Shown here piece after piece: positions 331 through 30,846 of a stretch of DNA of 64,000 nucleotides. Positions within the stretch are counted from its first letter, which is position 1. Each line of letters begins with the position of its first letter. The notes beneath the pieces are model-generated. The model was given only the letters and a program-made list of their open reading frames with translations, had not been told where the DNA came from and searched no databases. The DNA is taken from NCBI GenBank assembly GCA_036172245.1, contig JAYWIR010000032.1, positions 1-64,000 of the forward strand, read 5' to 3'. Position numbers and translations under genes: made by a program. Source of the stretch: Raillietiella orientalis (lineage: Eukaryota).

Positions 331-509
331 TTTTCGGCGCTGCTGCTGCTGCTGATGATGGTCCCCGGTTGCACTCTTGCCACACTGGCGTTCACTCAAA
401 CACTTGCCCTCTCAGGGCACTCAAAAATTGCCTTGGCAGTGGTTTTAAACACTGCCTTGGCTATGTATTGGGTATAAATTTAAACTAGCAATAATCACGC
501 CTCCCTTTC

Positions 510-8249: not shown

Positions 8250-8988
8250 CGTGCAGGCGTTGTCGTGAAGCGTATTCCCAACCGCTGCAAAAAAGAACTC
8301 GTTGCTACCGACAACAACTTCTCTGTTGACTCTGTCAACAGAGAGGGGAGCGACCCGGCGGCGGCGTCCGTCATCGACACCACCATCGATGACGTTGCCT
8401 TCGCGCGAGCCGCTGAAGAGCTGGCTGCCTCGTTGCAGTCAGAACCCTTCAAGGCTGGCAAGAAGGCCGTAAGGCGTCCGGCCTTCCCTGAGGAGTTCCC
8501 CACTTCCGACCCCGAGAAGAAGGCCAGAAGCGCAGCCTCCGTTTTTACGGCACCGTGCAAGAAGGCTGGACGTAAGTCCACAAAGCAAAGGAAGCTCGTG
8601 TTCCCCGTCGAAGGGGAAGTGATGGCTTCCGCAAGCGAGGGTGCCATGAGCGTGGGAAACTCTCGGGAACCGTCGACCGAGAGACTCCCACGGACGGACA
8701 CGGAAGGGATGGAGACGGAGGCCGAACAGTTGCCTCAGTTCCTGAGAAGGCCGAAACCCTCATAGACATCGCGCTTGCCTAGCAAGATGCTGGCTTCCCC
8801 ACAGCTCAAATCTTCCCAGCAGTAATGCCGGAAATCTCCTCCCGCCGTCGAATGCGCATCGCCGTTTGGAACGTGAACGGCATGACAGACGCCGTCAGCA
8901 GACGAGACATGGCTGCCCTACTGGAGTCCAACGACCTTGCGCTGCTGAAGGAGATTCACAAGATGTCTGCAGAACAAGCGCAAAAGAC
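8250..8988 (+). mobile_element. Element R: internal fragment (ORF1 C-terminus and first ~55 codons of APE), bounded by insertions Q and S
   Basis: ORF1 motif DDVAFARAAEELAASLQ; TAATG at 8823-8827; MPEISSRRRMRIAVWNVNG...LLKEIH. Homologous to T (30078-30846). Confidence 0.88.
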
Positions 8989-11900
8989 TTCTCACCCGGT
9001 AACGCAAAGGCGTTTACTCCATATAACATAAAGAAAAAACAATTATATAAAACAAACCAGTTGGGAACCAAGCTTTCAATAGCCGGCTGAACAAGAATGA
9101 AAAGAATATTGCTGGCACGCAGGCCAGAGTAACAGTTTTGCGAACGGTGTGGGGGGGCGGGGAACACAAAGAAACCAAAATAAAATAGAAACAATGAATA
9201 ACGAAGACCGGATAAGGGTCTTTGGGATCGCTCTGGGAGACACGGGGATAGAAGCATGGGCACCGGAAATTTTACCAGGCGAACGGGGACGGGATATTGG
9301 TGGGCGAGAGGTCGAAGGGTTTACCGGATTACGCCATTCTCAAAGGTCTGTAAACCGAAGATGTATGCCAGTGATGTCCTCTCCCACATTGTCACAAAGA
9401 TGAGACCACCTTGAAGCCTTTCTTATGAATTGAGCTGCAAGCAGGTGAGCCTCTTTTCGCTGCGCTGACAACTCCAGGGCGTAGCGGGCCTTCACGATAG
9501 CGCGAACGCAACGTATAGTTGCGACAATCCCGCCAAGCGAAAGTCCATTTCTGCTTAAGAAGCGCCGCAGCACATGAATGGCAGTGCCCCCTTGTGGCAT
9601 GATGCCCGAAGTGAGCCTTCGCAACAGTTCCCGGAGGTCACCGCAGTTTAGCAAAAGGTGCGGAAAAGACTCGATCTCCACGCACCTTAAACAGTTTGGC
9701 GAAGCAGCTCCCCCGGAAACGATGCTTCGCTGCCTATTACAGTGTAATGCACAATGATAAAAGAGCAGCACATCTTGTTTCCAATTTAGGGGTTAACACG
9801 GAGCTGTCCAAACAAACGAAGGGAACTACTATCTCATCGGGGAGCACACTTAAATGTTTGCTTCACCGACGGAGGCCCTTCGCCCGATTCCGAGGAGTGG
9901 CGGCTTGCACCAGCTCCTTTGTCGTCCAGCTGACGAGGAGCTTACTGACTGCTTCTATTTTGTAGGAGAACTCCCATTCCGCCAATAGGCAACCGTCGTT
10001 GCTTGTTGTGAGGGCAGATAGCGCTGCGGCGAGTGGTTTGTCGGGCAGACTATCCGACATCTTCCTGTCCTGCATGACTTCGTCCATTTGATGACTGAGG
10101 AGAAGTCGCAGGCGTCGAAGATCTTCCTGGCGCGTTCCTTCGGAAGCTGCCCATGATGAAAAAGATTCCTGCCGCCATGCATTAATGTTCATGGGGCGGT
10201 AGGAGATCAAACATTGGGCTTTCAGCAGTGAGGACAGCTGCCTCAGCGGGAAGCCAAACCCTATACTGGTGTGCCGAAAGTGGGGTAGCAACGAAAGCAG
10301 TATCTCGCTTCCCGTGCAGCGCCTCAGTATAGGGCGTGCGGGTAAGCACCACGGCGTACACCACAGCTAGGCACAGAGCCGCAGCATGCGAAACTGCACC
10401 TGCAGTTCGATGCTGTTTAAGTCGAGGATGCCCAAGCCTGAATCCTGACGAGGCGCCACCAAGTATTTAAGTCTAACACGGGATCTTGCAGAGCCCCACA
10501 ACGCTTTGCGTAGAAGGCGCTGCGCCCAGACTTTGACTTCCTGGCGAATGGATAAACAAAAAACAGAGGGCAGCGGCGGGGGGGAACGAAGGTGTTTCAG
10601 ATGCAGGCCCAATCCGGCAAGACCAACTCGCCTCATCAGAACGCGCCAAGTGAACGCTCTGCCTTCCAAAGGCAGTCCGACCACGCTTCTGAGATGCAGA
10701 ATTCGGCCAACGGCACCCCAAGGACATGAAGTACCTGCCCTTGGGGATCTTCAGACCGATCCAGTCGGACTGCCCCTCCCACGTTGCACTTACTGCAACA
10801 ACCATACACTTACTCCTCTGAACGCTCACGCAATCACCGCGACGTATCAACCTAAAGAAGTCTTCAAACGATGTCGCCGATGTGGACATGGGAAACAGGA
10901 GTAGCAGGTCGTCGGCATAGGCTTCCACAGCCGGCGTACCTGAAGAGAAGCTCGGCAGGTTGAATAGCGTCAGCCTGTAAGCCTTAAGCACAAATTCAAA
11001 TCAGATGCTCAAGAGCAGCGGGCTTAAGCTATCACCCTCCCTAATTTCTCGTCGTGCCGGCACTTCGTATAGGCGACAGCCACTGAAAACAATTAATGTA
11101 ATTGCGTGACGCCAGCAGGAGCGCAAGTACGCCAACAGGGATGCCGGAAAACCCAGACGTTCCAAAAGCTCAAGAAGAAGCTTTTGGTTCACGCAATCGA
11201 AAGCTTTGTTCAAATCGACGGCAACCGCCAAGGCTCCCAGAGTCTCCCTTTGCGTCCTGCGCCTCCGTCGGTGAGAGATTGAAGGCGTCGCTTCCGCACG
11301 ACGATCCACCGCCACACGATGCTGAAATTGCAGTTATGTGCGGATGAACAAGAGATTTGCGTCCATGGACCGCCCAGGAACAGCGTACGTCTGCTCCGGA
11401 CTTAGCAAGGATTCCGCGATCCTACCCATCCGCGCCACCCAAAGTTTCGAGAACAACTTGACGTCCGAATTCACTAATGTGATCGGACGCCAGTTATTCA
11501 GTTGGCGCAAATCTCCGCCTTTCGGCAGTAGACGCACCTTCGCTGAGCGAAACGAGGCGGGGACATCACCCGAGTCTCGCATCAGCGACGAGAGTTGGAG
11601 CACCAGGGGGATGAGCTCCGCCGCAAAACACTGGAAGAATTCCGCGGGGAGCCCATCTTCGCCTGGCGCTTTTCGTCTCTTGAGCCCCGAGATGGCCGAC
11701 GAAATTTCCTCTGCCGTGAAGGGCTTATCAAGACGTGCGCGTTCCTCCTCGTCTACAACAGGTGCATCAATCGGCAGAAGCAGCCGGGAGAGGCTGCGTT
11801 TCATCGGTGCCTCTGCATACAGAAAAGAGTAATAGCGCCTGATTATCCGTCGCTCGTCGGCTAGAGCCGAGCATTCGCGGTCCTGGTCGTCGAGCAGAAC

Positions 11901-13938: not shown

Positions 13939-14203
13939 CCCAACCGACGACTGAACAAGAATGAAGAGAATATTGCTGGCACGCAGGCCAGAGTAACAGT
14001 TTTGCGAACGGTGTGAGGGGGCGGGAAACACAAAGAAACCAAAATAAAATAAAAACAATGAATAAGGAGGACGGGATAAGGGTCTTTGGGATCGCTCTGG
14101 AAGACACGGGGATAAAAGCATGGGCACCGGAAATTTTACCGAGCGAACGGGGACGGGGTATGGGTGGGCGAGAGGTCGCAGGGGTCACCGGATTACGCCG
14201 TTC

Positions 14204-17200
14204 TCAAAGGTGTGTAAACCGGCGATGTATGCCGGTGATGTCCTCATTCACCTTGTCACGAAGATGAGACCACCTTGAAGCCTTCTCCATGAATTGAGCT
14301 GCAAGCAGGTGAGCCTCCCTTCGCTGCGATGACAACTCCAGGGCGTAGCGGGCCTTCACGATGGCGCGAACGCAACACATGGTTGCGACAATCGCGCCAA
14401 CCGAAAGTCTATTTCTGCTGAAGAAGCGCCGCAGCACATCAATGGCAGTGCCTCCTTGTGGCATGATGGCCGAAGTGAGCCTTCGCCACAGTTCCCGGAG
14501 GTCACCGCAGTCCAACAAAAGGTGCGGAAAAGACTCGATCTCTCCGCACCTTAAACAGTTTGGCAAAGCAGCTCCCCCGGAAACGATGCTTCGCTGCCTA
14601 TTACAGTGAAATGCACAATGTAAAAAGAGGAGCACATCTTGTTTCCACTTAAGGGGGAACACGGAGCTGTCCAAACAAACGGGGGGAACCACTATCTCTC
14701 CGGGGGGCACACTTAAATGTTCGCTCCACAGAAGCAGTCCCTTCGCCCGATTCCGAGGTGTGGCGGCTTGCACCAGCTCCTTTGTCGTCCAGCTGCCGAG
14801 GAGCTTACTGACTCCCGCTATTTTGCAGGAGAACTCCCATTCCGCCGGTAGGCAACCGTCGTTGCTTGCCCTGAGGGCAGACAGCGCTACGGCGAGTGGT
14901 GTGGCGGCCAGACGATCCGACCACTTCTTGTCCTGCATGACTTCGTCCATTTGATGACTGAGGAGAAGTCGCAGGCGTCGAAGATCTTCCGGGCGCGTTC
15001 CTTCGGAAGCTGCCCACGATGAAAAAGATTCCTGCCGCCATGCATTAATGTTCATGGGGCGGCAGGAGATCCAGCTGTGGGCTTCCAGCAGTGAGGACAG
15101 CTGCCTCAGCGGGAAGCCAAACCCTATTCTGGTGTGCCGAAAGTGGGGTAGCAACGAAAGCAGTCCCTCGCTTCCCGTGCAGCGCCTCAGTATAAGGCGT
15201 GCGGGTAAGCACCACGGCGTACACCACAGCTTGGCACAGAGCCGCAGCATGCGAAACTGCACCTGCAGTTCGATGCTGTTTAAGTCGAGGATGCCCAAGC
15301 CTGCATCCTGACGCGGCGCCACCAAGTCTTTAAGTCTAACACGGGATCTTGCAGCGCCCCACAACGCTTTGCGTAGAAGGCGCTGCGCCCAGACTTTGAC
15401 TTCCTGGGGGGGTGGACAAACAAAAAACAGGGGGCGGAGGAGGGGGGCAACGAAGGTGTTCCAGATGCAGGCCCGTTCCGGCAAGACGAACTCGCCTCCT
15501 GAAAACGGGCTAAGTGCACGCTCTGCCTTCCGAAGGCAGTCCGACCACGCTTCTGAGACGCAGAAGTCGCCCAACGGCACGCCAAGGTACCTGAGGTACC
15601 TGCCCGTGGGGATCTGCAGGTCGATCCAGTCGGACTGCCCCTCCCACGTCGCACCAACCGGAACAACCATACACTTACTCCTGTTAACGCTCACGCCCGC
15701 ACCACGACGGATAAACTCGAAGAAATCTTCAAGCGACGCTGTCGGGGTGGACATGGGCAACAGGAGAAGCAGGTCGTCGGCATAGGCTGCTACGGCGGGC
15801 GTACCTGGACAGGAGCTCGGCAGGTTGGCTAGCGTCAGCCTGTAAGCCTCCAGCACCAATTCAAAATAGATGCTGAAGAGCAGCGGGCTTAAGCTGTCAC
15901 CCTGCCTAATTCCTCGTCGTACCGGCACGCCGTACACGCGACAGCCACTGAAAACAATGGATGTAATCGCGTGGCGCCAGCAGGAGCGCAAGTACGCCAA
16001 CAGGGATGCCGGAAGACCCAGACGTTCCAAAAGCTCAAGAAGAAGCTTTTGGTTCACGCAATCGAAAGCTTTGTGCAGATCGACTGCAACCGCCAAGGCC
16101 CCAGGTGTCTCCCTTTGCGTCCCGCGCCTCCGTCGGTGAGAGATCGAAGGCGTCGCTTCCGCACGACGATCCACCGCCACACGATGCTGCAATTGCAGCC
16201 ATGTGCGGATGAACAAGAGATTCGCGTCCATGGACCGCCCAGGAACAGCGTACGTCTGCTCCGGACTTACCAAGGATTCCGCGATCCTACCCATCCGCGC
16301 CACACAAAGTTTCGAGAACAACTTGACGTCCGAATTCACTAATGTGATCGGACGCCAGTTGTTCAGTTGGCGCAAATCTCCGCCTTTCGGCAGTAGACGC
16401 ACCTTCGCTGAGCGAAACGAGGCGGGGACATCGCGCGAGTCTCGCATCAGCGACGAGAGCTGGAGCACCCGAGGGATGAGCTCCGCCGCAAAACACTGAA
16501 AGAATTCCGCGGGGAGCCCATCTTCGCCTGGCGCTTTTCGTCTCTTGAGCCCCGAGATGGCCGAGGAAATTTCCTCTGCCGTGAAGGGCTCATCAAGACG
16601 CGCGCGTTCCTCCTCGTCTACAACAGGTGCATCAATCGGCAGAAGCAGCCGGGAGAGGCTGCGTTCCGTCGGTGCCTCTGCATAAAGAGAAGAGTAATAG
16701 CGCCTGACTATCCGTCGCACGTCGGCTGGAGCCGAGTATTCCCGGTCCTGGTCGTCGAGCAGAACTGTCGCCCCTGACTGCCAGACCTGGCGCTCGGCCT
16801 TGGCCTTGTACTCGGATAATCGACCAACGTCCGCGCGCCTGGAGTAGGAGCGGGCCTGCAGAAAATCTCTGCTGTTGGCTACGCCCTCTCCGACGCCGCG
16901 CGGAAGCTGGTGCAAGGGAAACCGGCAGCAGAACTCGCGGACCGATCTTTTCAGATCGTCCCAGTCCTCGAGCTCACTTATGGCAAAGCCGAGGAGGTAC
17001 TGGCGAAGATGCTCAGCCGCCTCCGGGTGGCTTAGCCAGTCTGCCGGCATCCTCCAAAAACAGTTTGGAGGCCCCTTGCCTGGCGGGAGCAACTCGCACT
17101 CGAGCCTGTTGTGGTCTGAAAGCACGGACGGCACGGGACCTCTCCGACCCACTCGACAGAGCAAGTGTTCATCAAGGTATACGTGGTCCGGCGTTGCTGC

Positions 17201-17779
17201 CATAACAGGGTCGCTAGCGAACAAGTTGCACGCGTGCACGGACGCGCACATCTCTTCCGCTAGCAACTTTTCCCTTTTGTGGGATCTATTCTCGGAAAGC
17301 AGGTGGACGTTAAAGTCCCCCGCAATGAGATGGGCCACAGTAGGGTGAGATCGAGTGAGCCACTGGCCTTGAAGGGTACCGAAGAACTCAATCCTTTCGG
17401 CCCATCGTCCAGCACCGCTAGGCGCGTACACGTTGGTTACGACAAGGTCGATCGAGTCGGACCACTTGAGTACAAGCTGTCCCACTCGGCCTTCCGTGTC
17501 GAAACGAACGCTGCGCACCGCTCCCGCCAAAGTTCCTCGCACGAGGAAAGCGACGCCGCACGTACGTGCAACGCCGCACCTATAAAGTAGCGTTCCGCCC
17601 GCGCGCCGTTCGATTTCGGCAGCCTGCTCTCCGGAGATGCTGTGAATCTCCTGCAGGAGCGTCAAGTCGAAGGCGCGCAGAGCGTCAGCCACTAGTCGCC
17701 TCTTCTCCTCGTGTTGGAGCCCGTTGACGTTCCAAGACGTTACGGCAACACGACGAGAAGACGCGATTGCCCTCCTCAC
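14204..17779 (-). CDS. E1 ORF2: APE endonuclease, reverse transcriptase and C-terminal Cys/His finger (1191 aa, uninterrupted; GTG start)
   Basis: WNVNG, LLQE, NVYAP, AGDFN, SDH; KAPGEDG, NWRPITL, DLHKAFD, QGDSLSP, YADD, YLG; CLRC...E...H...C. Confidence 0.95.
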   Translation of the reverse strand: MRRAIASSRRVAVTSWNVNGLQHEEKRRLVADALRAFDLTLLQEIHSISGEQAAEIERRAGGTLLYRCGVARTCGVAFLVRGTLAGAVRSVRFDTEGRVGQLVLKWSDSIDLVVTNVYAPSGAGRWAERIEFFGTLQGQWLTRSHPTVAHLIAGDFNVHLLSENRSHKREKLLAEEMCASVHACNLFASDPVMAATPDHVYLDEHLLCRVGRRGPVPSVLSDHNRLECELLPPGKGPPNCFWRMPADWLSHPEAAEHLRQYLLGFAISELEDWDDLKRSVREFCCRFPLHQLPRGVGEGVANSRDFLQARSYSRRADVGRLSEYKAKAERQVWQSGATVLLDDQDREYSAPADVRRIVRRYYSSLYAEAPTERSLSRLLLPIDAPVVDEEERARLDEPFTAEEISSAISGLKRRKAPGEDGLPAEFFQCFAAELIPRVLQLSSLMRDSRDVPASFRSAKVRLLPKGGDLRQLNNWRPITLVNSDVKLFSKLCVARMGRIAESLVSPEQTYAVPGRSMDANLLFIRTWLQLQHRVAVDRRAEATPSISHRRRRGTQRETPGALAVAVDLHKAFDCVNQKLLLELLERLGLPASLLAYLRSCWRHAITSIVFSGCRVYGVPVRRGIRQGDSLSPLLFSIYFELVLEAYRLTLANLPSSCPGTPAVAAYADDLLLLLPMSTPTASLEDFFEFIRRGAGVSVNRSKCMVVPVGATWEGQSDWIDLQIPTGRYLRYLGVPLGDFCVSEAWSDCLRKAERALSPFSGGEFVLPERACIWNTFVAPLLRPLFFVCPPPQEVKVWAQRLLRKALWGAARSRVRLKDLVAPRQDAGLGILDLNSIELQVQFRMLRLCAKLWCTPWCLPARLILRRCTGSEGLLSLLPHFRHTRIGFGFPLRQLSSLLEAHSWISCRPMNINAWRQESFSSWAASEGTRPEDLRRLRLLLSHQMDEVMQDKKWSDRLAATPLAVALSALRASNDGCLPAEWEFSCKIAGVSKLLGSWTTKELVQAATPRNRAKGLLLWSEHLSVPPGEIVVPPVCLDSSVFPLKWKQDVLLFLHCAFHCNRQRSIVSGGAALPNCLRCGEIESFPHLLLDCGDLRELWRRLTSAIMPQGGTAIDVLRRFFSRNRLSVGAIVATMCCVRAIVKARYALELSSQRREAHLLAAQFMEKASRWSHLRDKVNEDITGIHRRFTHL

Positions 17780-19680
17780 GGCTGGGAAAGCGAGGCCGTG
17801 GTGCTCGCCTCACCCGGCGAGCGGGCAGTAAGCAGCACGACGGGCTGGAGGGCGCGGTCGCCACCGGCCTCAACTGTGCTGCACGTAATCGGGTGCTCCT
17901 CCCCGGGTGCAGAACCTGTGGGTTCCGGGGTGAGCACTCGCCGTTCCGCGGCGAGTGTGTCACGCCTCAGGGCTTCAGCCCCGCGGGCGCTCGCTCCCGC
18001 GCGAGTTACGCGTCGTTCAGCTGCGTTATCGGACTCCTTTGCGAAGTCTGATGCTCGCACGATCGACGTGCGCTTGCATCCGTCCGATTGCACCGGAATG
18101 GTCTTCTCGGCGGTCACAGAAGCGGACTTGCACGCGTTGAAGGCGTTGGCTTTTTCCTTGGACGAGTCACAAGCCGCGCGTGTTTTCGTATTCGCGCGAC
18201 TGCTTTTTCCTTTGGAAGAGCTCAGGGATGGAGGTTGCGGAGCTTTCTTTGGAGATTTTTCTTTCCTCCTCTCCACAACCTTCCATTCGCCTTCGCTATT
18301 TTCGGAAGCTTCCGCGACAGTAGTTGCGGAAACCTCCGGGATTTTCGCTGCGTTCTCTGGGGGCGTTGCTTTCGCTACGCCTTTAAAAGGCGGCAACGGA
18401 GTCACCTTCTTGACAGTCGGGAGATTGCTCCTCTCCTGCCGAGTCGGCGATGGGGCGACTGCATGCAGCGTGCTTTTGCTCGTTGCGACGCTGCTTTTTA
18501 CGGCTTTCGTAGCCTTTGCAGTGGGGCCTGCGCTGCAGTGGGGCTGTCCGGAACTCGGAAGGGACAACGGAACGGGGCAAGAAGTCTTCGCACTGTTGCG
18601 ATCTTCCTGTTTTCCTACCTTTCCCTCCAGGGTGTTACAGAGATTTCCTGGTTCCAGGTTCGGAAAGGTGCCTGCGAGTTCGGCAGAGAGGGAAGGCACG
18701 GCACGTGTCAAACCCTCGCGCCCCTTTTTAATTGGCTTCCCCGCCGTGACTTTCCCCTTTCGGGGCGTTGCGGGCGGGGATGCTTTCTTTTTATCCGCGG
18801 ATCGCTCGTGGTTTTTTTCGAGTTTTTGCGGACGACGTTTTTTATTTGCCGCTGCGGCTTTTCGTGCAGTGGTCTCTTGAACCCGACGAATTTCCGCTGC
18901 GGCTCTTTTTCTTGCAAGTACCGGGCACTTCTTGATTTTGTGCCCGGAATCTTTGCAATAGCGGCATCTTGGAGAGGGGCACTCTTTAATTCGGTGCCCA
19001 TCCTTGCCGCACTGCTCGCACGCGCGAGTCTGGCCTATGAACCACAGGTGAACGACCGTGCCGTTCACCTGCAGCTGCTCAGGCACAACACGCCTGTTCG
19101 CGACGGTGATCCGCGCGGAGGCTTGTCCAATGTGGACAGAGGGGAAATCCTTTAGAGGATTTGGCCTCCTCCACAGAGCGTGCACGGTGGCGAACTTCGC
19201 CAGCACACTTACGACATCGCGGTCGGAGATTTCCGGTTCGATGTCGCACAATTGAACGACAAAAGAGTCGTCCATCGCGGTAGGTAGGACTTCCTTGCCA
19301 TTGATGGTCAACGGCGTACGGAGAAGGCGCTGCACAAGTGCTGCGTTCTTGCACCGAATCTTCGTATATTCCATCCTGCCAGCAGGCATTATGGCAAGGA
19401 GTTCCTCCTCGCGAACGCCGATCCGGACGAGCTCCTCATTGAGCTCACGACGGATTTACTTGTTAAGGGGCCAACTGACCTTATGACGGAGTGCTGGCAT
19501 GTATCCTGATGACACATACGCCTGGAACTCCGCATCGCAGGGTCCTGGTCTTTGGGAGGTAACTGCGGCGTAACTCCTCACCGGGGGCGAGGAAACCATT
19601 ACGGAGGATGCGGCCGCTTCAAGTGCAGCTGAAGTGCATCCAGTGGCTTGCTACTCCACACAATCCTGTGTACTGGCCAT
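17776..19680 (-). pseudogene. E1 ORF1 (gag-like nucleic-acid-binding protein with two CCHC knuckles), one in-frame TAA at 19456-19458
   Basis: ATG at 19680 is homologous to the E2 ATG at 25646; knuckles CEQCGKDGHRIKEC and CRYCKDSGHKIKKC; open from 19455 to 17776. Confidence 0.85.
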
Positions 19681-19786
19681 GTTGCACTATGCTACTTGGC
19701 AGATTGCACAGGAACTTACAATTGCGAGCAAAGACGCAGGCACAAAGTTGCCCGATCGTTGGCGCGGATAGATGCGGAAACACATC

Positions 19787-19809
19787 TGCACTGTACGAGC
19801 GCAAGAGAT
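19787..19809 (+). repeat. Target-site duplication, left copy (TGCACTGTACGAGCGCAAGAGAT), lying between E1 and E2
   Basis: Direct repeat of 25753-25775 (21/23 identical). It is derived from the APE coding sequence of element H. Confidence 0.88.
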
Positions 19810-20163
19810 TTCTCACCCGGTCACGCCGGGGCGTTTATTCCATATAACATAAGCAAAAAACAGCAATTATACAAAATAAACCAGTTGGAAACCAAACTCT
19901 CAACCGACGACTGAACAAGAATGAAGAAAATATTGCTGGCACGCAGGCCAGAGTAACAGTTTCGTGAACGGTGTGGGGGGGCGGGGACCACAAAGAAACC
20001 AAAATAAAATAAAAACAATGAATAAGGAGGACGGGATAAGGGTCTTTGGGATCGCTCTGGAAGACACGGGGATAAAAGCATGGGCACCGGAAATTTTACC
20101 GAGCGAACGGGGACGGGGTATGGGTGGGGAAGAGGTCGCAGGGGTCACCGGATTACGCCGTTC

Positions 20164-23100
20164 TCAAAGGTCTGTATAAATGCGATGTATGCCGGTGATG
20201 TCCTCATTCCCCTTGTCACGAAGATGAGACCACCTTGATGCCTTCTCCATGAATTGAGCTGCAAGCAGGTGAGCAACCCTTCGCTGCGCTGACAACTCCA
20301 GGGCGTATCGGGCCTTCACGGTGGCGCGAACGGAACACATGGTTGCGACGATCGCGCCAACCGAAAGTCCATTTTTGCTGAAGAAGCGCCGCAGCACATC
20401 AATAGCAGTGCCTCCTTGTGGCATGATGGCCGAAGTGAGCCTACGCCACAGTTCCCGGAGGTCACCGCAGTCAAGCAAAAGGTGCGGAAAAGACTCGATC
20501 TCTCCGGCACGGCAAAGCAGACCCAATAAACCAGCTCCCCGGGAAACGATGCTTCGCTGCCTATTACAGTGAAATGCACAATGTAAAAAGAGCAGCACAT
20601 CTTGTTTCCACTTAAGGGGGAACACGGAGCTGTCCAAACAAACTGGGGGAACCACTATCTCTCCGGGGGGCACACTTAAATGTTCGCTCCACCGAAGCAG
20701 TCCCTTCGCCCGATTCCGAGGTGTGGCGGCTTGCACCAGCTCCTTTGTCGTCCAGCTGCCGAGGAGCTGACTGACTCCCGCTATTTTGCAGGAGAACTCC
20801 CATTCCGCCGGTAGGCAACCGTCGTTGCTTGCCCTGAGGGCAGACAGCGCTACGGCGAGTGGTGTGGCGGCCAGACGATCCGACAACTTCTTGTCCTGCA
20901 TGACTTCGTCCATTTGATGACTGAGGAGAAGTCGCAGGCGTCGAAGATCTTCCGTGCGCGTTCCTTCGGAACCTGCCCACGATGAAAAAGATTCCTGCCG
21001 CCATGCATTAATGTTCATGGGGCGGCAGGAGATCCAGCTTTGGGCTTCCAGCAGAGAGGACAGCTGCCTCAGCGGGAAGCCAAACCCTATTCTGGTGTGC
21101 CGAAAGTGGGGTAGCAACGAAAGCAGTCCCTTGCTTCCCGTGCAGCGCCTCAGTATAAGGCGTGCGGGTAAGCACCACGGCGTACACCATAGCTTGGCAC
21201 GGAGCCGCAGCATGCGGAACTGCACCTGCAGTTCGATGCTGTTTAAGTCGAGGATGCCCAAGCCTGCATCCTGACGCGCCGCTACCAAGTCTTTTAGTCT
21301 AACACGGGATCTTGCAGCGCCCCACAACGCTTTGCGTAGAAGGCGCTGCGCCCAGACTTTGACTTCCTGGGGGGGTGGACAAACAAAAAACAGGGGGCGG
21401 AGGAGGGGGGCAACGAAGGTGTTCCAGATGCAGGCCCGTTCCGGCACGACGAACTCGCCTCCTGAAAACGGGCTAAGTGCACGCTCTGCCTTCCGAAGGC
21501 AGTCCGACCACGCTTCTGAGACGCAGAAGTCGCCCAACGGCACGCCAAGGTACCTGAGGTACCTGCCCGTGGGGATCCCCAGGTCGATCCAGTCGGACTG
21601 CCCCTTCCACGTCGCACCAACCGGAACAACCATACACTTACTCCTGTTAACGCTCACGCCCGCACCACGACGGATCAACTCAAAGAAATCTTCAAGCGAC
21701 GCTGTCGGGGTGGACATGGGCAACAGGAGAAGCAGGTCGTCGGCATAGGCTGCCACGGCGGGCGTACCTGGACAGGAGCTCGGCAGGTTGGCTAGCGTCA
21801 GACTGTAAGCCTCCAGCACCAATTCAAAATAGATGCTGAAGAGCAGCGGGCTTAAGCTGTCACCCTGCCTAATTCCTCGTCGTACCGGCACGCCGTACAC
21901 GCGACAGCAACTGAAAACAATGGATGTAATCGCGTGGAGCCAGCAGGAGCGCAAGTACGCCAACAGGGATGCCGGAAGACCCAGACGTTCCAAAAGCTCA
22001 AGAAGAAGCTTTCGGTTCACGCAATCGAAAGCTTTGTGCAAATCGACTGCAACCGCCAAGGCTCCCGGTGTCTCCCTTTGCGTCCCGCGCCTCCGTCGGT
22101 GAGAGATCGAAGGCGTCGCTTCCGCACGACGATCCACCGCCACACGATGCTGCAATTGCAGCCATGTGCGGATGAACAAGAGATTCGCGTCCATGGACCG
22201 CCCAGGAACAGCGTACGTCTGCTCCGGACTTACCAAGGATTCCGCGATCCTACCCATCCGCGCCACCCAAAGTTTCGAGAACAACTTGACGTCCGAATTC
22301 ACTAATGTGATCGGACGCCAGTTGTTCAGTTGGCACAAATCTCCGCCTTTCGGCAGTAGACGCACCTTCGCTGAGCGAAACGAGGCGGGGACATCGCCCG
22401 AGTCTCGCATCAGCGACGAGAGTTGGAGCACCAGGGGGATGAGCTCCGCCGTAAAACACTGAAAGAATTCCGCGGGGAGCCCATCTTCGCCTGGCGCTTG
22501 TCGTCTCTTGAGCCCCGAGATGGCCGAGGAAATTTCCTTTGCCGTGAAGGGCTCATCAAGACGCGCGCGTTCCTCTTCGTCTACAACAGGTGCATCAATC
22601 GACAGAAGCAGCTCGGAGAGGCTGCGTTCCGTCGGTGCCTCTGCATACAGAGAAGAGTAATATCTCCTGACTATCCGTCGCACGTCGGCTGGAGCCGAGC
22701 ATTCCCGGTCCTGGTCGTCGAGCAGAACTGTCGCCCCTGACTGCCAGACCTGGCGCTCGCCCTTGGCCTTGTACTCGGATAATCGACCAACGTCCGCGCG
22801 CCTTGAAAATAAGCGGGCCTGCAGAAAATCTCTGGTGTTGGCTACGCCCTCTCCGAAGCCGCGCGGAAGCTGGTGCAAGGGAAACCGGCAGCAGAACTCG
22901 CGGACCGATCTTTTCAGATCGTCCCAGTCCTCGAGCTCACTTATGGCAAAGCCGAGGAGGTACTGGCGAAGATGCTCAGCCGCCTCCGGGTGGCTTAGCC
23001 AGTCTGCCTGCATCCTCCAAAAACAGTTTGGAGGCCCCTTGCCTGGCGGGAGCAACTCGAACTCGAGCCTGTTGTGGTCTGAAAGCACGGACGGCACGGG

Positions 23101-23742
23101 ACCTCTCCGACCCACTCGACAGAGCAAGTGTTCATCAAGGTATACGTGGTCCGGCGTTGCTGCCATAACAGGGTCGCTAGCGAACAAGTTGCACGCGTGC
23201 GCAGACGCGCACATCTCTTCCGCTAGCAACTTTTCCCTTTTGTGGGATCTATTCTCGGAAAGCAGGTGGACGTTAAAGTCCCCCGCAATAAGATGCGGTA
23301 CAGTAGGGTGAGAACGAGTGAGCCACTGGCTCTGAACGGTACCGAAGAACTTAATCCTTGTGGCCCATCGTCCAGCACCGCTCGGCGCGTACACGTTGGT
23401 TACGACAAGGTCGATCGAGTCGGACCATTTGAGTACAAGCTGTCCCACTCGGCCTTCCGCGTCGAAACGAACGCTGCGCACCGCTCCCGCCAAAGTTCCT
23501 CTCACGAGGAAAGCGACGCCGCACGTACGTGCAACGCCGCACCTATAAAGTAGCGTTCCGCCCGCGCGCCGTTCGATTTCGGCAGCCTGCTCTCCGGAGA
23601 TGCTGTGAATCTCCTGCAGGAGCGTCAAGTCGAAGGCGCGCAGAGCGTCAGCAACTAGTCGCCTCTTCTCCTCGTGTTGGAGCCCGTTGACGTTCCAAGA
23701 CGTTACGGCAACACGACGAGAAGACGCGATTGCCCTCATCAC
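20164..23742 (-). CDS. E2 ORF2: APE endonuclease and reverse transcriptase (1192 aa, uninterrupted; probable ATG at 23739)
   Basis: All APE and RT motifs as in E1. The CxxC of the C-terminal finger is altered (LLCRAGE). Confidence 0.95.
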   Translation of the reverse strand: MMRAIASSRRVAVTSWNVNGLQHEEKRRLVADALRAFDLTLLQEIHSISGEQAAEIERRAGGTLLYRCGVARTCGVAFLVRGTLAGAVRSVRFDAEGRVGQLVLKWSDSIDLVVTNVYAPSGAGRWATRIKFFGTVQSQWLTRSHPTVPHLIAGDFNVHLLSENRSHKREKLLAEEMCASAHACNLFASDPVMAATPDHVYLDEHLLCRVGRRGPVPSVLSDHNRLEFELLPPGKGPPNCFWRMQADWLSHPEAAEHLRQYLLGFAISELEDWDDLKRSVREFCCRFPLHQLPRGFGEGVANTRDFLQARLFSRRADVGRLSEYKAKGERQVWQSGATVLLDDQDRECSAPADVRRIVRRYYSSLYAEAPTERSLSELLLSIDAPVVDEEERARLDEPFTAKEISSAISGLKRRQAPGEDGLPAEFFQCFTAELIPLVLQLSSLMRDSGDVPASFRSAKVRLLPKGGDLCQLNNWRPITLVNSDVKLFSKLWVARMGRIAESLVSPEQTYAVPGRSMDANLLFIRTWLQLQHRVAVDRRAEATPSISHRRRRGTQRETPGALAVAVDLHKAFDCVNRKLLLELLERLGLPASLLAYLRSCWLHAITSIVFSCCRVYGVPVRRGIRQGDSLSPLLFSIYFELVLEAYSLTLANLPSSCPGTPAVAAYADDLLLLLPMSTPTASLEDFFELIRRGAGVSVNRSKCMVVPVGATWKGQSDWIDLGIPTGRYLRYLGVPLGDFCVSEAWSDCLRKAERALSPFSGGEFVVPERACIWNTFVAPLLRPLFFVCPPPQEVKVWAQRLLRKALWGAARSRVRLKDLVAARQDAGLGILDLNSIELQVQFRMLRLRAKLWCTPWCLPARLILRRCTGSKGLLSLLPHFRHTRIGFGFPLRQLSSLLEAQSWISCRPMNINAWRQESFSSWAGSEGTRTEDLRRLRLLLSHQMDEVMQDKKLSDRLAATPLAVALSALRASNDGCLPAEWEFSCKIAGVSQLLGSWTTKELVQAATPRNRAKGLLRWSEHLSVPPGEIVVPPVCLDSSVFPLKWKQDVLLFLHCAFHCNRQRSIVSRGAGLLGLLCRAGEIESFPHLLLDCGDLRELWRRLTSAIMPQGGTAIDVLRRFFSKNGLSVGAIVATMCSVRATVKARYALELSAQRRVAHLLAAQFMEKASRWSHLRDKGNEDITGIHRIYTDL

Positions 23743-25646
23743 GGCTGGGAAAGCGAGGCCGTGGTGCTCGCCTCAGCCGGCGAGCGGGCAGTAAGCAGCA
23801 CGACGGGCTGGAGGGCGCGGTCGCCACCGGCCTCAACTGTGCTGCACGTAATCGGGTGCTCCTCTCCGGGTGCAGAACCTGTGGGTTCCGGGGTGAGCAC
23901 TCGCCGTTCCGCGGCGAGTGTGTCACGCCTCAGGGCTTTAGCCCTGCGGGCGCTCGCTCCCGGGCGAGTTACGCGTCGTTCAGCTGCGATATCGGACTCG
24001 CCCACCGCAAAGTCTGATGCTCGCACGATCGACGTGCAGCTTGCTCCGTCCGATTGCACCGGAATGGTCTTCTCGGCGGTCACAGAAGCGGACTTGCACG
24101 CGTTTAGGGCGCTGGCTTTTTCCTTGGAAGAGTCACAAGCCGCGCGTGTTTTCGTATTCCCGCGACTGCTTTTTCCTTTGGAAGAGCTCAGGGACGGAGG
24201 CTGCGGAGCTTTTTTTGGAGATTTTTCTTTCCTCCTCTTCACAACCTTGCATTCGCCTTCGCGATTTTTCGGTGATGCGAAAAATTACAGATTGCGGATT
24301 AACATCTTCCACCTTTGCGTTCTCTGGGGGCGTTGCTTTCGCTACGCCTTTAAAAGGCGGCAACGGAGTCACCTTCTTGACAGTCGGGAGATTGCTCCTC
24401 TCCTGCCGAGTCGGCGATGGGGCGACTGCATGCAGCGTGCTTTTGCTCGTCGCGACGCTGCTTTTTACGGCTTTCGTAGCCTTTGCAGAGGGGCCTGCGC
24501 TGCAGTGGGGCTGTTCGGAACTCGGAAGGGACAACGGAACGGGGCAAGAAGTCTTCGCACTGTTGCGATCTTCCTGTTTTCCTACCTTTCCCTCCAGGGT
24601 GTTACGGAGATTTGCTGGTTCCAGGTTCGGAAAGGTGCCTGCGAGTTCGGCAGAGAGGGAAGGCACGGCACGCGTCAAACCCTCGCGCCCCTTTTTAATT
24701 GGCTTCCCCGCCGTGACTTTCCCCTTTCGGGGCGTTGCGGGCGGGGATGCTTTCTTTTTATCCGCGGATCGCTCGTGGTTTTTTTCGAGTTTTTGCGGAC
24801 GACGTTTTTTATTTGCCGCTGCGGCTTTTCGTGCAGTGGTCTCTTGAACCCGACGAATTTCCGCTGCGGCTCTTTTTCTTGCAAGTACCGGGCACTTCTT
24901 GATTTCGTGCCCGGAATCTTTGCAATAGCGGCATCTTGGAGAGGGGCACTCTTGAATTCATGCCCCTCCTTGCCGTACTGCTCGCACGCGCGAGTCTGGC
25001 CTAAGAAACACAGGTGTATGAGCGTGCCTTTCACCTGCAGCTGCTCAGGCACAACACGCCTGTTCGCGACGGTGATCCGCGCGCAGGTTTGTCCGATGTG
25101 GACAGAAGAGAAATCCTTGAAAGAGTTCGGCCTCCTCCACAAAGCGTGCACGGTGGCGAAATTCGAGAGCACGCTGACAACATCGCGGTCGGAAATTTTC
25201 GGTTCGATTTCGCACAATTGAACGACAAAAGAGTCGTCCATCGCGGTAGGTAGGACTTCCTTGCCATTGATGGTCAACGGCGTACGGAGAAGGCGCTGCA
25301 CAAGTGCTGCGTTCTTGCACCGAATCTTCGTATATTCCCTCCTGCCAGCAGGCATTATGGCAAGGAGTTCCTCCTCGCGAACGCCTATCCGGACGAGCTC
25401 ATCATTGAGCTCACGACCGATTCTCCCGTTAAGTGGCCCACTGACCTTATAACGGAGTGCAGGCATGTATCCTGATGACACATATGCCTGGAACTCCGCA
25501 TCGCAGGGTCCTGGTCTTTGGGAGGTAACGACGGCGTAACTCCTCACCGGGGGCGAGGAAACCATTACGGAGGATGCGGCCACTTCAAGTGCAGCTGAAG
25601 TGCATCCAGTGGCTTGCTCCTCCACACTATCCTGTGTACTGGCCAT
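23739..25646 (-). pseudogene. E2 ORF1, frameshifted near 24960 and disturbed near 24260-24315
   Basis: Pieces 24675-25646, 24133-24678 and 23739-24242 are collinear with E1 ORF1. Confidence 0.85.
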
Positions 25647-25752
25647 GTTGCACTATGCTACTTGGCAGATTGCACAGGAACACACAAGTGCGAGCAAAAA
25701 CGCAGGCACAAAGTTGCCCGATCGTTGGCGCGGAAAGACGCGGAAACACGTC

Positions 25753-27301
25753 TGCACTGTACGAGCGCGGGAGATCGAGCGTATCTGGGGTGGAAGGCTG
25801 CTGTGGCGTTGCGGCACCGTTAAATCTTGCGGTGTCGCGTTCCAGCTTCGTCCAGCTGTCGAGGCTGCGGCAAAAAGCGTAGGGTTCGATAGTGCCAGTC
25901 GCGACGGGCAGTTGACCATCAGGTGGTCCGACTCCACCGATCTGGTCATTACCAACGTGTACGCTTTAAGAGGCAGCGACGCGCTAAGAGCAAAGTTAAG
26001 GAGAAATTTCTTTCTTACCCTGAGGCGCGAATATCTAGACGAAGCGGGAGTGCGCAAAGCGAACCTAATCGCAGGAGACTTTCACCTGCGCCTGCTGTCA
26101 GATTCGTGCGACACACTTCGGGACCGCGTGAACGAGCTGTGCGCAAAGATGCACACGCGCAACTTGTTCGCAAGAGCTACGAAAATGGCCGAAAGCATAG
26201 ATCACGTGTTTCTGGACCAGCACCTATGCTCAGGCGTGGGCAGGCGCGGCAAGATACCGTCGAAACTGTAGGACCATGACCGGATCGTACTCCAGGTGCG
26301 CACACGCGATAGGGGTCCGCGTCATCTTCGTGGCGCTTACCGGGCGACTGACTGAAACTTCCGGAAGCCCCGGAGCATCTCCGCGGTTTCATACGAGGTT
26401 TTAGCTTAAGTCGCTTCAGGACTGGGACCGTTTCAAGCGCTCGGTCCGGAAATTTTTGCGACGTGTTCCCTATGAACCTCCTGCCTGCCGGGTTTTGTGG
26501 GAACGTGCGTAACGAGAGATAGTAATTACAATCTCCATGTTACGCGCGAACACCAGACGTACACAGGCTAACCGAATACTGGGCGGGAGCCGAGAGGCAG
26601 GCGTTGCAATCCGGGTCGGCCAGCTTACTGGACGACCAGAGTTCGGAGCACTCGGCCCCCGCCCAGGTGAAAGGCATCTTAAAAATTTCTACTCCTCCCT
26701 GTACGCGCGCGCTTCACCGAAACGGGATGTCTTGCGAGTCCTTCTTCCGGAGGGCGCTCCGGGGATCGGGGAGGAAGATAGAAAGACCCTCGACGAGCCT
26801 TTAACGATGGGCGAGATCATCTCGGCCATCGGAAAGCACAAGAGGCGAAAGGCTCCAGGAGAGGATGGCCTGCCAGAAGAATTTTTTCAATGTTTCGCGT
26901 AAGAGCTCACTCCTCTGGTGAACAAACTCACCTAGCTGATCCGCGAAACGGGAGACGTCCCCGCCTCGTTTCGTTCGGCAAAACTGCGTCTCCTCCCTAA
27001 GGCAGGAGACCTTCGTAGCATGAGTAAGAGGCGGCTAATTACCGTGATAAACGCGGACACCAAGTTGCTGGCAAAATTGCCGATTAACGGAAATCTTCAT
27101 TAGCCCGGAGCAGACATATGCTGTTCCCGTGCGGAGCATGGATGCCAACATGTTCCTCGCTAGCACCTCTTCGCGCTTCAACAGGAAAGGGTCAGGAAGG
27201 GCAACCGGACTTCCGGAATGTCCGCTGCTAGGAAACGGGATGGTTGGAAGGGAGGGGGAGGGAGCCCTCGCAGACGCAGTCGATTTGCATAAAGCATTCG
27301 A
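25753..27301 (+). mobile_element. Element H, second segment: remainder of APE, linker and RT up to DLHKAFD (pseudogenised); begins with the right TSD copy 25753-25775 and is interrupted by T
   Basis: AREIERIWGGRLLW...NVYA...AGDFH; KAPGEDGLPEEFF; DLHKAFD. It continues the reading broken at 13938. Confidence 0.87.
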
Positions 27302-30300
27302 TTTTCACCCGGATTTCGCCGGGGCGTTTATTGTAAAATAAACTTTTACAAATACGTGCGGTGGCTGGACCATTGCTGCAGCCACGCACGAAAAAACACA
27401 GAGCCTGCCGGGTCACCGGTTCGCAGACAGGTACGGTCCACAACGGAAGCAGGGGGAAGGGGGAAAACCAAAAAACACAACAAAAAAGATAAGAAAAGTT
27501 CGGAGGGTAAGGGAAGGGATCACAGTTGCTGGTGGGGCCGTAGCATCCTTTGCAGAATGCCGGCAAGCTCCTTCTGTATTCCTGTATCCAGGTGGGGCCA
27601 TCGGGACGCCCTCTTCAGGAACTGGGAGGCTGGCTGGATGGCACCCTGGTCGCGTTGTCCTCCCGTAGCCTTGCTCCTAGCGGTGACAATCCCGCGTAGG
27701 CAGCACAAAGCTGCTAACGAGGTCACTAACCGAAGGGCGTCGGCAACGAAGAGGGCTTTCAGTGCGTCCCTGGAGTTGCCGCAGGGGATTCCGATGGCAG
27801 CGGCAAAGCGAAACCAAAGGGGCCGAAAGGCAACACAATCCACTAGCAGGTAAGGGAGGGACTCCCGTTCCCCACACCTGACGCAATTGGGGTCCACCGC
27901 TCCCCAGGTCCACTGGTGTCGGCGGGCGTCGCAGGGTAGTCCCCAGTGCTGCAACCGGAGAGCCAACTCCTGCCATTTTAAGTGGAGGGCGGAAGTGTTC
28001 ATGAGCACCGGGGGCTACTTCGGATGTTCAATGGGAACATCGAGCAGCGCGCCCCAGCGCAGAAGTCCATTGAGAGGCGTACTCGGAGTCGCAGTGTCTG
28101 TTAACTGGCCCGTCTTCCACTCTCCTAACTTCTTCTCCTTTCCGGAGATTGTTACTGTAACCACCCACTTCGCCGCAACATCGCTGTCCAGATCTTCCAT
28201 CAGGAAGGGCAGCGCAGCTCAAGGGGGGTTATTCCTGCCCACGCTCTCTTCTTTGGGTCCTCCAGGATCTCGCGAAGCGTGCAACTTCTGTAACCCCCAA
28301 ACAGGAACATTCGTTCCTGTTGGGAGCGTTGCATGCCGAACTGTCCCCATGTTCGAACGGTTTCCTGCAACCAGGCACTACCATTGAAAAGGCGACAGGT
28401 GAGCAATCCTGGGTTTTTGCGATACAGCGCAGCCACCCTCGGTAGCTGGAGTCCGCATCGGTTGGCGCGGCGACGGAGTGCAAGAAACGACGTCAGCCCG
28501 GTCTTGCCGGTGGGTTGCTGGAGAAGGAGACGTGCAGACACGAACCAACAGGTACACAACAACTCTGGAACGAGTGCCGACAATCGGAACTGGAGCTCCA
28601 GCCGCTCCAGCGTCAGGAGGCTCAGACCACCATCCTGACGAGGAGCGCACAAGTCCTTTAAGCGGACTCGGGCCGAGTCGTTGCCCCAAAGGGCGATACG
28701 GAGGAGGCCTTTTGTCCTCTTTTTAATTCTCTCTGTGGGGGGGCAGACAAAAAGCAGGGGGCGGAAAAGAGGAGCCGCGAACGTGTTTCAAACCGCGGGC
28801 CGTTCAGGCAGGAAAAACCTCACGCCTCGGAACGAGCCGTTCGCCGTCTCTGCTTTTTGGAGGCAGCCGGACCACGCTTCGGCAGGGGAGAAGTCCCACA
28901 ACGGCACACCAAGGTACTTGAAGTACCTCACCTTGGGGATCCACAAACGGACCCAGTCCTGCTGCCCTGCCCACGCCGCACCAACTGGCATCATGGACGA
29001 CTTCGCCCTGTTCACCGTAAACACGGTTCCTCGATTCAGCAGGTCGAAGAACTTCTCGACCGCCCAAGCCGGGGTGGACATAGGAAGCAGTAACAAGAGG
29101 TCGTCCGCATATGCTGAAACCGCAGGCGTTTCGGCGCATTCATGCGGCAGGTGCGCCAGAGTTTCCCTGTACGCTTTCAGTACCAACTCAAAGTAGGTAC
29201 TGAAGAGCAAGGGGCTCAGGCTGTCTCCTTTCCGGATCGAACGTCGCACCGGCACGCCGTGAACAGTATGCCCGCTGAAAGTAACATTGATTCTCGCTTT
29301 GTATTCCGCCATCCTACGGATGTCGGGGGTCCTGGCGTAACGACCGGCCTGCAGATAGGCTCGTTCGTCACGTACTGCGTCCTGAAATCCCGCAGGTAGG
29401 CGGTGCAGAGGGAACTGGTCGAAGAACTTCTGGACCGACCGCTTGAAGCGGTCCCAATCCTGGAGTGTCCGCAGCCTGAAGCTCCGTATGAACGTGCGGA
29501 GATGTTCCGCCGCACATGGGAACTTCAGTCAGTCCCATGGCAAACGCCACACTGACGAGGGGGGGCCCTTATCGCGCGGAAGAATTTCAATAACAATGGG
29601 TCGATGGTCGGACAACCCGCACGGTAACTTGCCGCGCCTGCCCACGCGAGGGCACAGGTGCTCGTAAGGAAACACGTGATCAATGCTGTCTTCCTTCCCC
29701 GGTGCACTGGCCAACAAATTACAGGTGTGCACCGCCATGCACACCTCGTTTACCAGGTCACGCTCGGGATTCTGCCCATCTGGTTTCAGGCGAACGTTTA
29801 AATCGCCTGCAACCAGATGGGCATTCCGGACGCCTGCTTCGGTCAGCCAGTCTCGGCGGAGGGCAAGGAAAAACTTTTTCCTCGCCCTCCTAGTCATCAG
29901 GTCCGCGCCGCTCAGTGCGTACACGTTCGTGACGATCAGATCGATCGAGTCGGACCACCTGAGAGTGAGCTAGCGGAGACGACCGTGATCGTCGAACCGC
30001 ACCCCCCGAGCCGTCGCCTCGACGGCTGGCCGAAGCAGGTAGGCGACACCGCAACTTTTCGCTCTCCCACACCTGTATCATAGCCGCCCTCCGGAAATCC
30101 GTTCGATCTCTTGTGCTTGTTTTGTAGAAATCAAGTGGATCTCCTGCAGCAGCGCAAGGTCGTAGGACACCAGAAGGGCGACCATGTCTCTTCTCCTGCC
30201 GGCATCTGTCATGCCGTTCACGTTCCAAACGGCGATGCGCAGACGACGGCGGGAGGAGGTTACCGGCATTACTGCTGGGAAGATTAAGGTGTGGGGGAGC

Positions 30301-30846
30301 CCTAATCTTGCGATGCAGGCGGGATGTCCATGGGGGTTTGGGCCTTCTCAGGAACCTGAGGCACCTGTTCGGCATCCACTTCCTCGATCCCCTCCGTTTC
30401 CGTGCGTGAGAGACTCTCGGGCGACAAGTCCCTAGAGTTTCCCACGCTCATGGCAACCTCGCTTGCGGAAGCCATCTGTTCCCCTTCGACGGGAAAGACG
30501 AGCTTTCTTGGCTTTGTGGACTTACGTCGAGCCTTCTTGCGCGGTGCCGTGGAAACGGAGGCTGCGCTTCCGGGTTCAACCTCGAGGTCGGAAGTGAACA
30601 ACTCCTGAGGGGAGGCCGGACGCCTTACGGCCTTCTTGCCAGCCTTGGGGGGTTCTGACTGCAACGAGGCTGCCAGCTCCCTTGCGGCTCGCGCGAAGGC
30701 TACGTCATCGATGTTGGTGTCGATGACGGAAGCCGCCGCCGGCTCGCTACCCTCGCGGTTGACAGAGTCAACAGAGGGGAGGTCGTCGGTAGCGACGAGT
30801 TCTTTTTCGCAGCGGTCGGGAATGCGCTCTACGACAGCGGTGCACT
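27302..30846 (-). mobile_element. Element T: ORF1 C-terminus, ORF2 pseudogene with an internal deletion at about 29295, and a complete 3' end; 5' part cut off by W
   Basis: TAATG at 30267-30271; APE 29529-30269; fusion AEYKA|RINVTFSG joins the linker directly to mid-RT; YADD in 28788-29312; terminus CCGGGTGAAAA. Confidence 0.9.

Follow-up and report, generated by a model that had tools for sequence, protein, structure and literature searches.

A conserved 3' terminus in place of a poly(A) tail in L1-like LINEs of Raillietiella orientalis: a candidate recognition hairpin for reverse transcriptase

The 64,000-nucleotide stretch of Raillietiella orientalis DNA analysed here (NCBI GenBank assembly GCA_036172245.1, contig JAYWIR010000032.1, positions 1 to 64,000 of the forward strand; hereafter the window) has a GC content of about 0.55–0.61 and holds a dense nest of retrotransposons without long terminal repeats (non-LTR retrotransposons). 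The L1-like long interspersed nuclear elements (LINEs) of this nest, which encode CCHC zinc knuckles in a first open reading frame (ORF1) and an apurinic/apyrimidinic-type endonuclease (APE) with a reverse transcriptase (RT) in a second (ORF2), end in a compact conserved motif of about 30 bases that is probably, though far from certainly, the 3'-terminal recognition and initiation module, or ‘stringent-type’ tail, of an L1-like non-LTR superfamily. The observation of this motif, put forward in an original prediction for the same DNA, is confirmed: the element-sense sequences given there for nine sites are present as written and on the implied strands, the complementarities ACGC/GCGT versus ATGC/GCAT and of the loop CCCG with a downstream CGGG are literally there, and the motif does stand in place of a poly(A) tail. 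Its functional fold is most likely a single bulged hairpin rather than the H-type pseudoknot originally proposed, as judged from folding models.

Across the nine sites the tail conforms, in element sense, to AATAAA-YGC-CCCG-GCRY-N2-3-CCGGG-TG-NN-A(2-5), the copies in elements S and A being degenerate. In element E2 (19809–19839, minus strand) it reads AAUAAA-CGC-CCCG-GCGU-GA-CCGGG-UGAG-AAA, that is, a hexamer, a hairpin, UGAG and an AAA terminus, as delimited by the sequence, by the junction with the leader of element E1 and by a contig from the public sequencing run X1. Sequence and profile matches place further tails on the same strand in elements T (27302–27332, with the loop CGAAAU and folding in agreement), Z (33934–33964, with CCUCGG ... 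CCAGG and RNAalifold in agreement), Y (38292–38321) and X (41799–41828). Two lie on the plus strand, that of P (51176–51206), recognized from sequence and folding as a perfect 7-bp hairpin of −14.9 kcal/mol, and that of V (54520–54550), identified by sequence, profile match and folding and carrying the hexamer AAUAUA and one extra G in the stem. The decayed tail of S (8988–9018, minus strand), an old 5'-truncated copy of the E family, is unlike E2 at five of 30 positions, and that of A (4860–4882, plus strand) is degenerate or truncated. The sample thus comprises nine copies, seven of them non-degenerate, from one 64-kb LINE nest.

No copy carries a poly(A) run. The conserved GGGUG is followed by two variable bases, by two to five A's (terminal A-runs in eight copies) and then by unrelated sequence, so that the copies end in neither poly(A) nor a simple repeat. 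The E2 terminus is fixed by the next base, already part of the E1 leader that comes after it, and by the run X1 contig, which matches from 19808 upward across the terminus and has an unrelated flank beyond it; contigs from three sequencing runs, short and derived from diverged copies, served to confirm this one terminus and not to assess covariation (per-position tables). Among sequencing runs, a word search listed one DNA run, with a share of 0.25 of the words, and no RNA run. The terminus of S was located right behind ...GAGAA(G) by comparing T', which is interrupted, with T, its uninterrupted paralogue. Such comparison of paralogous targets fixes 3' junctions only, the nest being too rearranged for target-site duplications that would mark both insertion ends. 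The copies truncated at the 5' end, which begin at ORF2 residue 280 (S), 165 (V) or 819 (P), retain the tail, as expected because target-primed reverse transcription (TPRT) starts at the 3' end.

The hexamer is present in all nine copies, exactly as AAUAAA in seven and as AGUAAA in S and AAUAUA in V, at 23–25 nt from the end of the copy, and UGUA occurs within 100 nt upstream in five of the nine, with an AU-rich region before the hexamer. To judge by sequence, this is the layout of a canonical eukaryotic poly(A) signal, in which the hexamer lies 10–30 nt before the end and is preceded by U-rich or UGUA sequence.

Within the window the motif is confined to LINE 3' ends. A loose regular expression recovered eight of the nine sites and one spurious partial match (60150–60174), while an nhmmer profile built from eight tails returned its source tails at E ≤ 2.2e-7, the A tail at E = 0.001 and the next match at E = 0.074. 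Every tail site lies directly 3' of an APE+RT ORF2 or ORF2 fragment on the same strand, and the profile matched only ORF2-bearing copies, and in the 64 kb neither a short interspersed nuclear element (SINE) nor any other non-autonomous partner was found to carry the tail. Exact-pattern scans gave one match in 241 million metagenome records, one in a collection of prokaryote genomes and none in viral contigs; given this rarity, eight copies within 64 kb far exceed chance. The two outside matches were themselves judged to be chance, since the metagenome match (L001) falls inside a long open frame without a LINE ORF and the prokaryote match (L002), on a Marinobacter contig, has no LINE ORF nearby, the best tblastn E-value for such an ORF near either being 0.089. 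At Rfam gathering thresholds no family matched any tail, the only match in the window being a U4 small nuclear RNA (snRNA) gene. No publication on this particular motif was found in literature searching that was not aimed at the motif itself.

The tail is far better conserved than the sequence that precedes it. Over the 36 pairs of the nine copies the 30-nt tail has a mean pairwise p-distance of 0.27, as against 0.52 in the preceding 290 nt of 3' untranslated region (UTR) and 0.45 in the 3' part of ORF2, and the original remark that the upstream UTRs are very different holds to the point that they are unalignable between superclades. A maximum-likelihood tree of the 3' part of ORF2 resolves two such superclades, (P, A, (E1, E2, S)) and (T, V, (Z, (X, Y))), with all named nodes at 100/100, and the tail is common to both. 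Across diverged LINE lineages the 3' terminus has therefore been kept far better than the remaining sequence of the elements, as in stringent tails, the rest of the UTR and ORF2 being near saturation in the lineages that keep the module. The stem is constant and the loops are clade-specific: those of E and P are CGURA-like, and X, Y and Z have CAYAU. Between the dead copy S and E2 the divergence is 10% in ORF2 and UTR and 17% (5/30) in the tail, a decay which argues that conservation acts on lineages still transposing and that the inserted DNA is unprotected.

The elements that carry the tail are L1-like in their coding capacity. Stop-to-stop frames of up to 1202 codons contain an APE endonuclease (Exo_endo_phos) and RVT_1, with CCHC zinc knuckles in upstream frames, and a tblastn map drawn with E1 ORF1 and ORF2 shows more than 15 LINE pieces on both strands, most of them interrupting one another. 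The longest frame, E2 ORF2 (20164–23772, minus strand, 1202 codons), encodes the APE endonuclease, the reverse transcriptase and a C-terminal CCHC motif (Pfam RVT_1 1.4e-19, Exo_endo_phos 5.8e-11), and E1 ORF2 is 95% identical to it. The closest solved structure to E1 ORF2 is human L1 ORF2p (8e-45, versus 6e-15 for R2). Among database relatives, at most 28% identical, 28 of 45 carry zf-RVT, and atlas neighbours carry RVT_1, Exo_endo_phos and zf-RVT. In the elements themselves Pfam finds zf-CCHC in ORF1, C-x2-C-x7-H-x4-C is visible in the ORF2 translation and Pfam zf-RVT in ORF2 remains below cut-off (E = 0.17). By sequence the domain layout is that of L1, with APE, RT and a C-terminal Cys/His motif in ORF2 and a separate ORF1, and membership of the L1 clade is probable; a poly(A) 3' end, which mammalian and flowering-plant L1 typically have although it is not universal in L1, is absent here.

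Two overlapping foldings compete for the tail. The first, hairpin L, is the minimum free energy (MFE) fold in the seven non-degenerate copies (−5.6 to −14.9 kcal/mol) and has the form YG(C)CCCGG / loop 5–6 / CCGGGUG: it joins the core CCCGG/CCGGG of the originally proposed stem 2 through a loop of 5–6 nt and adds a Y-G/U-G(R) extension across one bulged C that sits five pairs from the loop. In E2 it occupies 19814–19833 (minus strand) as CG(C)CCCGG / CGUGA / CCGGGUG, with 7 bp and one bulged C, and is both the RNAfold MFE structure (−8.9 kcal/mol) and the RNAalifold consensus. The second, stem 1 of the original prediction (ACGC / CCCG / GCGU, 19823–19834, minus strand), reaches −4.0 kcal/mol in E2 when the first 19 nt are folded alone, and it and the outer part of hairpin L are mutually exclusive. 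Folded alone, stem 1 yields only −1.0 to −5.9 kcal/mol across the copies; hairpin L is the more stable in all nine, by 0.2–11 kcal/mol, and by 1.0–11 kcal/mol in the seven non-degenerate ones, and the RNAalifold consensus of the nine copies is hairpin L alone. In its register 90.5% of cells are paired, as against 29–49% when the 3' partners are slid by one to three columns. RNAalifold further indicates that Z keeps a pair through U:A at columns 17–30 and X through U:A at columns 13–34 (column numbers, as all pair counts, refer to a nine-sequence MAFFT alignment), and in P the replacement of CCGGG by CGGGG removes the bulge to leave the perfect stem.

The evidence for covariation is more limited than originally claimed. 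Written in pseudoknot notation, the tail has 88.9% of cells paired as against 22–53% with the 3' partners slid, and one of the eight pairs changes on both sides, namely columns 13–23, where X, Y and Z have U:A and the other six copies C:G; by stem this amounts to one of four pairs in stem 1 and none of four in stem 2 (pseudoknot register), and three of the nine copies lack the outer A:U pair of stem 1. The C:G/U:A switch on which the claim of a covarying stem 1 rested thus exists, but in one pair, and it is not significant against shuffles. It moreover counts as one event because X, Y and Z form one clade (100/100), and with one arm going from CG to TG and the other from CG to CA, both changes are CpG transitions, the commonest substitutions where CpG is methylated. 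As a single event made of CpG transitions, the 13–23 covariation is suggestive only and may also be explained by CpG decay.

We propose that the AAUAAA hexamer with the U-rich or UGUA sequence upstream would set cleavage of the RNA 3' end just behind the hairpin, and that ORF2p would then bind the hairpin, reading a stem common to all subfamilies and a loop particular to each clade. Target-primed reverse transcription by ORF2p would begin on the last few nucleotides, so that any poly(A) added to the RNA would be left uncopied.

Several points weigh against this proposal. The evidence is that of sequence, from the small sample of one nest, and the window holds no tail-sharing SINE or other non-autonomous partner by the profile search. 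The placement in the L1 clade derives from best matches and not from a tree with all LINE clades. The covariation of neither fold is significant, the score of hairpin L being matched by 147 of 500 shuffles and that of the pseudoknot notation by 30 of 500, and the 13–23 change from C:G to U:A fits stem 1 and not hairpin L, which has column 23 in its loop. Mononucleotide shuffles give stability z-scores down to −5.2 for some copies, but dinucleotide-preserving shuffles remove most of the signal (−0.35 to −2.74, with only P standing out), and for this reason stability is no evidence in a motif so rich in GC and was not used as such. Finally, part of the conservation could be due to AAUAAA alone, suitably spaced from the end and acting as a processing signal without recognition by RT.

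This last point leads to the main rival, a minority but serious possibility, according to which the module is a 3'-end processing signal only: the hairpin would go unread by RT, the short A-tails would have another origin, and AAUAAA with a structured GC/GU-rich spacer would substitute for a downstream element that a retrotransposon cannot carry. The hexamer or its one-base variants in nine of nine copies, the constant spacing to the end and the UGUA and AU-rich sequence upstream are all in keeping with such a signal. By itself, however, it leaves the uniform 2–5 A's unexplained, since priming on poly(A) as in relaxed L1 predicts longer and variable A-runs; the stem is also tighter than a spacer requires, and the loop varies by clade.

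Less probable, and in our estimate quite unlikely, is a switch between the two mutually exclusive hairpins, in which stem 1 (AYGC/GCRU) would form first and leave CCGGGUG single-stranded, for instance for the CCHC knuckles of ORF1p, before giving way to hairpin L for RT initiation. Both complementarities do exist, the both-sides changes at 13–23 (X, Y, Z), 17–30 (Z) and 13–34 (X) are distributed over the two structures, and the knuckles are present in ORF1, but stem 1 is weak, its outer pair is broken in a third of the copies and the 13–23 change is the single event of two CpG transitions described above.

It is very unlikely that the motif has no function as RNA and that the tails resemble one another through recombination or template switching of co-expressed LINE RNAs, or through a role of the CCGG palindrome at the DNA level. 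The copies do come in small number from one dense nest, and a stem core that is itself the palindrome CCGG would yield pairing from sequence conservation alone. Against recent homogenization, the differences between tails (the loops, and U13/A23 in X, Y and Z) track the ORF2 tree, and the decay of the tail in the dead copy S speaks against a function of the inserted DNA.

The compact H-type pseudoknot, formed by stem 1 and the loop CCCG with the downstream CGGG and recognized by RT, is the least tenable of the alternatives. It would pair all four bases of a 4-nt hairpin loop and leave connecting loops of 0, 0 and 3 nt, which by the geometry rules for pseudoknots is judged sterically implausible. 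The high proportion of paired cells, the one pair changed on both sides and the score that 30 of 500 shuffles match speak for it, as does the precedent of R2 proteins, which according to passages in PMC11601368 and PMC12222951 bind pseudoknotted 3'UTRs, but stem 2 shows no change on both sides, so that covariation in both stems fails, and the same nucleotides form a much stabler plain hairpin. What remains of the original interpretation is a compact, conserved and structured 3' terminus that replaces poly(A) and for which recognition by RT is plausible.

Upstream of the tail the UTRs, although unalignable between the superclades, share one architecture: a T-rich run, a C-rich tract, a hairpin (HP1), a variable hairpin and an AU hairpin. 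In E2, HP1 reads CUGGC / CUGCGU / GCCAG (19936–19951, minus strand), and the same hairpin recurs in other copies. Its CYGG / CCRG core lies 66–112 nt before AAUAAA in eight of the nine tail-bearing copies and in E1, copy A having by eye just a 4-bp version. At the second core pair the E family has U:A, most others have C:G and Z has U·G, and the inner, loop-adjacent pair is C:G, U:A or G:C according to clade. The AU hairpin (HP3), common to subfamilies, pairs (G)UUUAUU with AAUAAA(C) and was seen in the E2 stretch 19840–20000 and its equivalents; in E2 an exact complement search places GUUUAUU, the complement of the tail sequence AAUAAAC, at 19875–19881 (minus strand). An exact complement of 7–8 nt to the AAUAAA region occurs within 60 nt upstream in six of the nine copies, with p-values of 0.01–0.17 each by mononucleotide shuffle and a Fisher combination of 0.006, to be read with the copies not being independent.

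The nest also shows regularities in where its elements are inserted. In the E-family copies S and E2, two independent 3' ends come right after one and the same base of a homologous site, ...GCGCAARAGA/TCGA... with the slash marking the junction (8960–8990, 19774–19810, 25740–25790 and 30100–30170). This site lies, in antisense orientation, within endonuclease-coding sequence of two other LINEs, T' and U. Homology to it (APE residues ~54–66) is also seen in the opening ~36 nt of E1 and E2, which read on in frame into U. These junctions suggest site-specific insertion of the E family into sister LINEs, which would account for the head-to-tail E2–E1 pair, a 36-bp target duplication followed by unequal exchange being the alternative. 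The 3' end of P (51204–51225) is followed by the start of the 5'-truncated V at the FNL codons of the APE GDFN motif, in sense orientation, and the run X1 contig, which has a loose end at 19808, joins an E-like 3' end to a 17-nt flank nearly identical to that of the P/V junction; this junction may be a second preferred insertion site. A scheme uniting these features with the tail is doubtful: in it, an L1-like superfamily without poly(A) would use a two-state 3' terminus (short and long hairpin) between AAUAAA and the cleavage site as the sole entry for RT, and at least one subfamily (E) would add site-specific insertion into the endonuclease-coding site of sister LINEs, carry 36 nt of target at its 5' end and so build head-to-tail arrays.

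Other features of the window concern the rearrangement of the nest. In E1 (13941–19809, minus strand) both frames are open, ORF1 over 559 and ORF2 over 1201 codons, but ~90 nt are missing from the end of the element, the tail among them, and the shortened 3'UTR runs into element U at the LLQ codons of its APE. Elements X, Y and Z stand head to tail (33934–46200, minus strand), each tail abutting the next 5'-truncated start about 500–570 nt upstream of its ORF2. At 46595–49550 (minus strand) lie three tandem ORF1-like segments with 29–34% identity to E1 ORF1, two of which (46599–47382 and 47805–48588) are 77% identical in DNA. A 3.8-kb block occurs twice in opposite orientation with 87% identity (5175–8987 and 30107–33934) and contains a head-to-head LINE pair, namely a B-type ORF1/ORF2 and the start of a T-type ORF2; it looks like a segmental duplication within the nest, probably older than the S insertion. 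The U4 spliceosomal snRNA gene (407–544, minus strand; Rfam RF00015, 83.5 bits, E = 4.5e-17) is full-length and lies at the edge of the LINE nest. At the other end, from 56000 to 64000, LINE density is lower and the GC content falls to 0.45 in the last 2 kb; a LINE ORF2 fragment is found at 63186–63639 (minus strand), and the ORFs at 55.5–64 kb are of low complexity.

Should the hairpin be the handle by which RT selects its template, these elements would provide another independent L1-like case of stringent, structure-based template choice instead of poly(A), and would bear on which mode is ancestral in the L1 clade, an open question (Ohshima, 2012; PMC3472496). They would also offer a very small candidate recognition RNA (about 25 nt) for an APE-type RT, in which the roles of stem and loop are separable by mutation. 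The motif in any case marks exact 3' ends, an aid to the annotation of a heavily nested LINE cluster.

The view that independence from poly(A) would be unusual in the L1 group, as the original prediction held, is overstated. L1 families without (A)n include 13 of 15 in green algae and nine of 233 in flowering plants, and L1-clade LINEs are described whose 3' stem-loops are conserved and show compensatory changes (Ohshima, 2012; PMC3472496). Among them are a monocot L1 lineage in which the last 45 nt have a divergence of 0.144 versus 0.570 and form a hairpin with compensatory changes, lineage 1a in monocots consisting of LINE1-1_ZM with ZmSINE2/3, and a Chlamydomonas L1 (L1-1_CR) that shares its tail with a SINE (SINEX-3_CR) (PMC3472496). 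The elements described here resemble these stringent L1-clade LINEs in that the last ~45–80 nt are the most conserved (0.144 versus 0.570 there; 0.27 versus 0.45–0.52 here), and in the predicted 3' hairpin, which there shows some compensatory changes. Those LINEs still terminate in poly(A) and owe their definition to a SINE partner; the present ones have neither in the window, and their tail is of unrelated sequence with the hairpin directly behind AAUAAA.

In the L2 clade the tails of UnaL2 and the ZfL2 elements end in short tandem repeats, where the elements here have their 2–5 A's. In UnaL2 and ZfL2-1/-2, ORF2p is reported to bind the 3' stem-loop, its recognition being general for the stem and specific for the loop (Hayashi, 2014; PMC4176376), and this mode of reading would fit the constant stem and clade-specific loop found here. 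UnaL2 and ZfL2-1/-2 nevertheless belong to another LINE clade, and binding by ORF2p, known for theirs, is putative for ours. In human L1, retrotransposition depends on the poly(A) tail. A stem-bulge-loop with a loop of 5–7 nt has been proposed for the 3' end of human L1 and Alu, as set out in part of Grechishnikova and Poptsova (2016; PMC5135761), and the order of stem, bulge and loop near the 3' end is matched here by the 5–6 nt loop and bulged C. The human structure differs in its 8–10 bp stem and in the long poly(A) tail that follows it.

The R2 3'UTR pseudoknot, as presented in portions of PMC11601368 and PMC12222951, is alike in being a structured 3'UTR RNA that brings a non-LTR RT into position for TPRT in the absence of poly(A). 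R2 is however set apart by a restriction-like endonuclease, a single ORF, a ribosomal DNA target and a much larger RNA fold, and a pseudoknot is unsupported here. In Drosophila the RNA of the I factor is polyadenylated and its poly(A) is not copied into new insertions, the behaviour we would expect of the present elements, although I elements have (TAA)n ends, belong to another clade and encode an RNase H. In sequence the tail described here is unrelated to these known tails, from which it is distinguished by its seat directly behind AAUAAA and by the absence of repeats and poly(A). Stringent LINE tails are already known, including from the L1 clade, and the present motif adds another case to them and no new principle.

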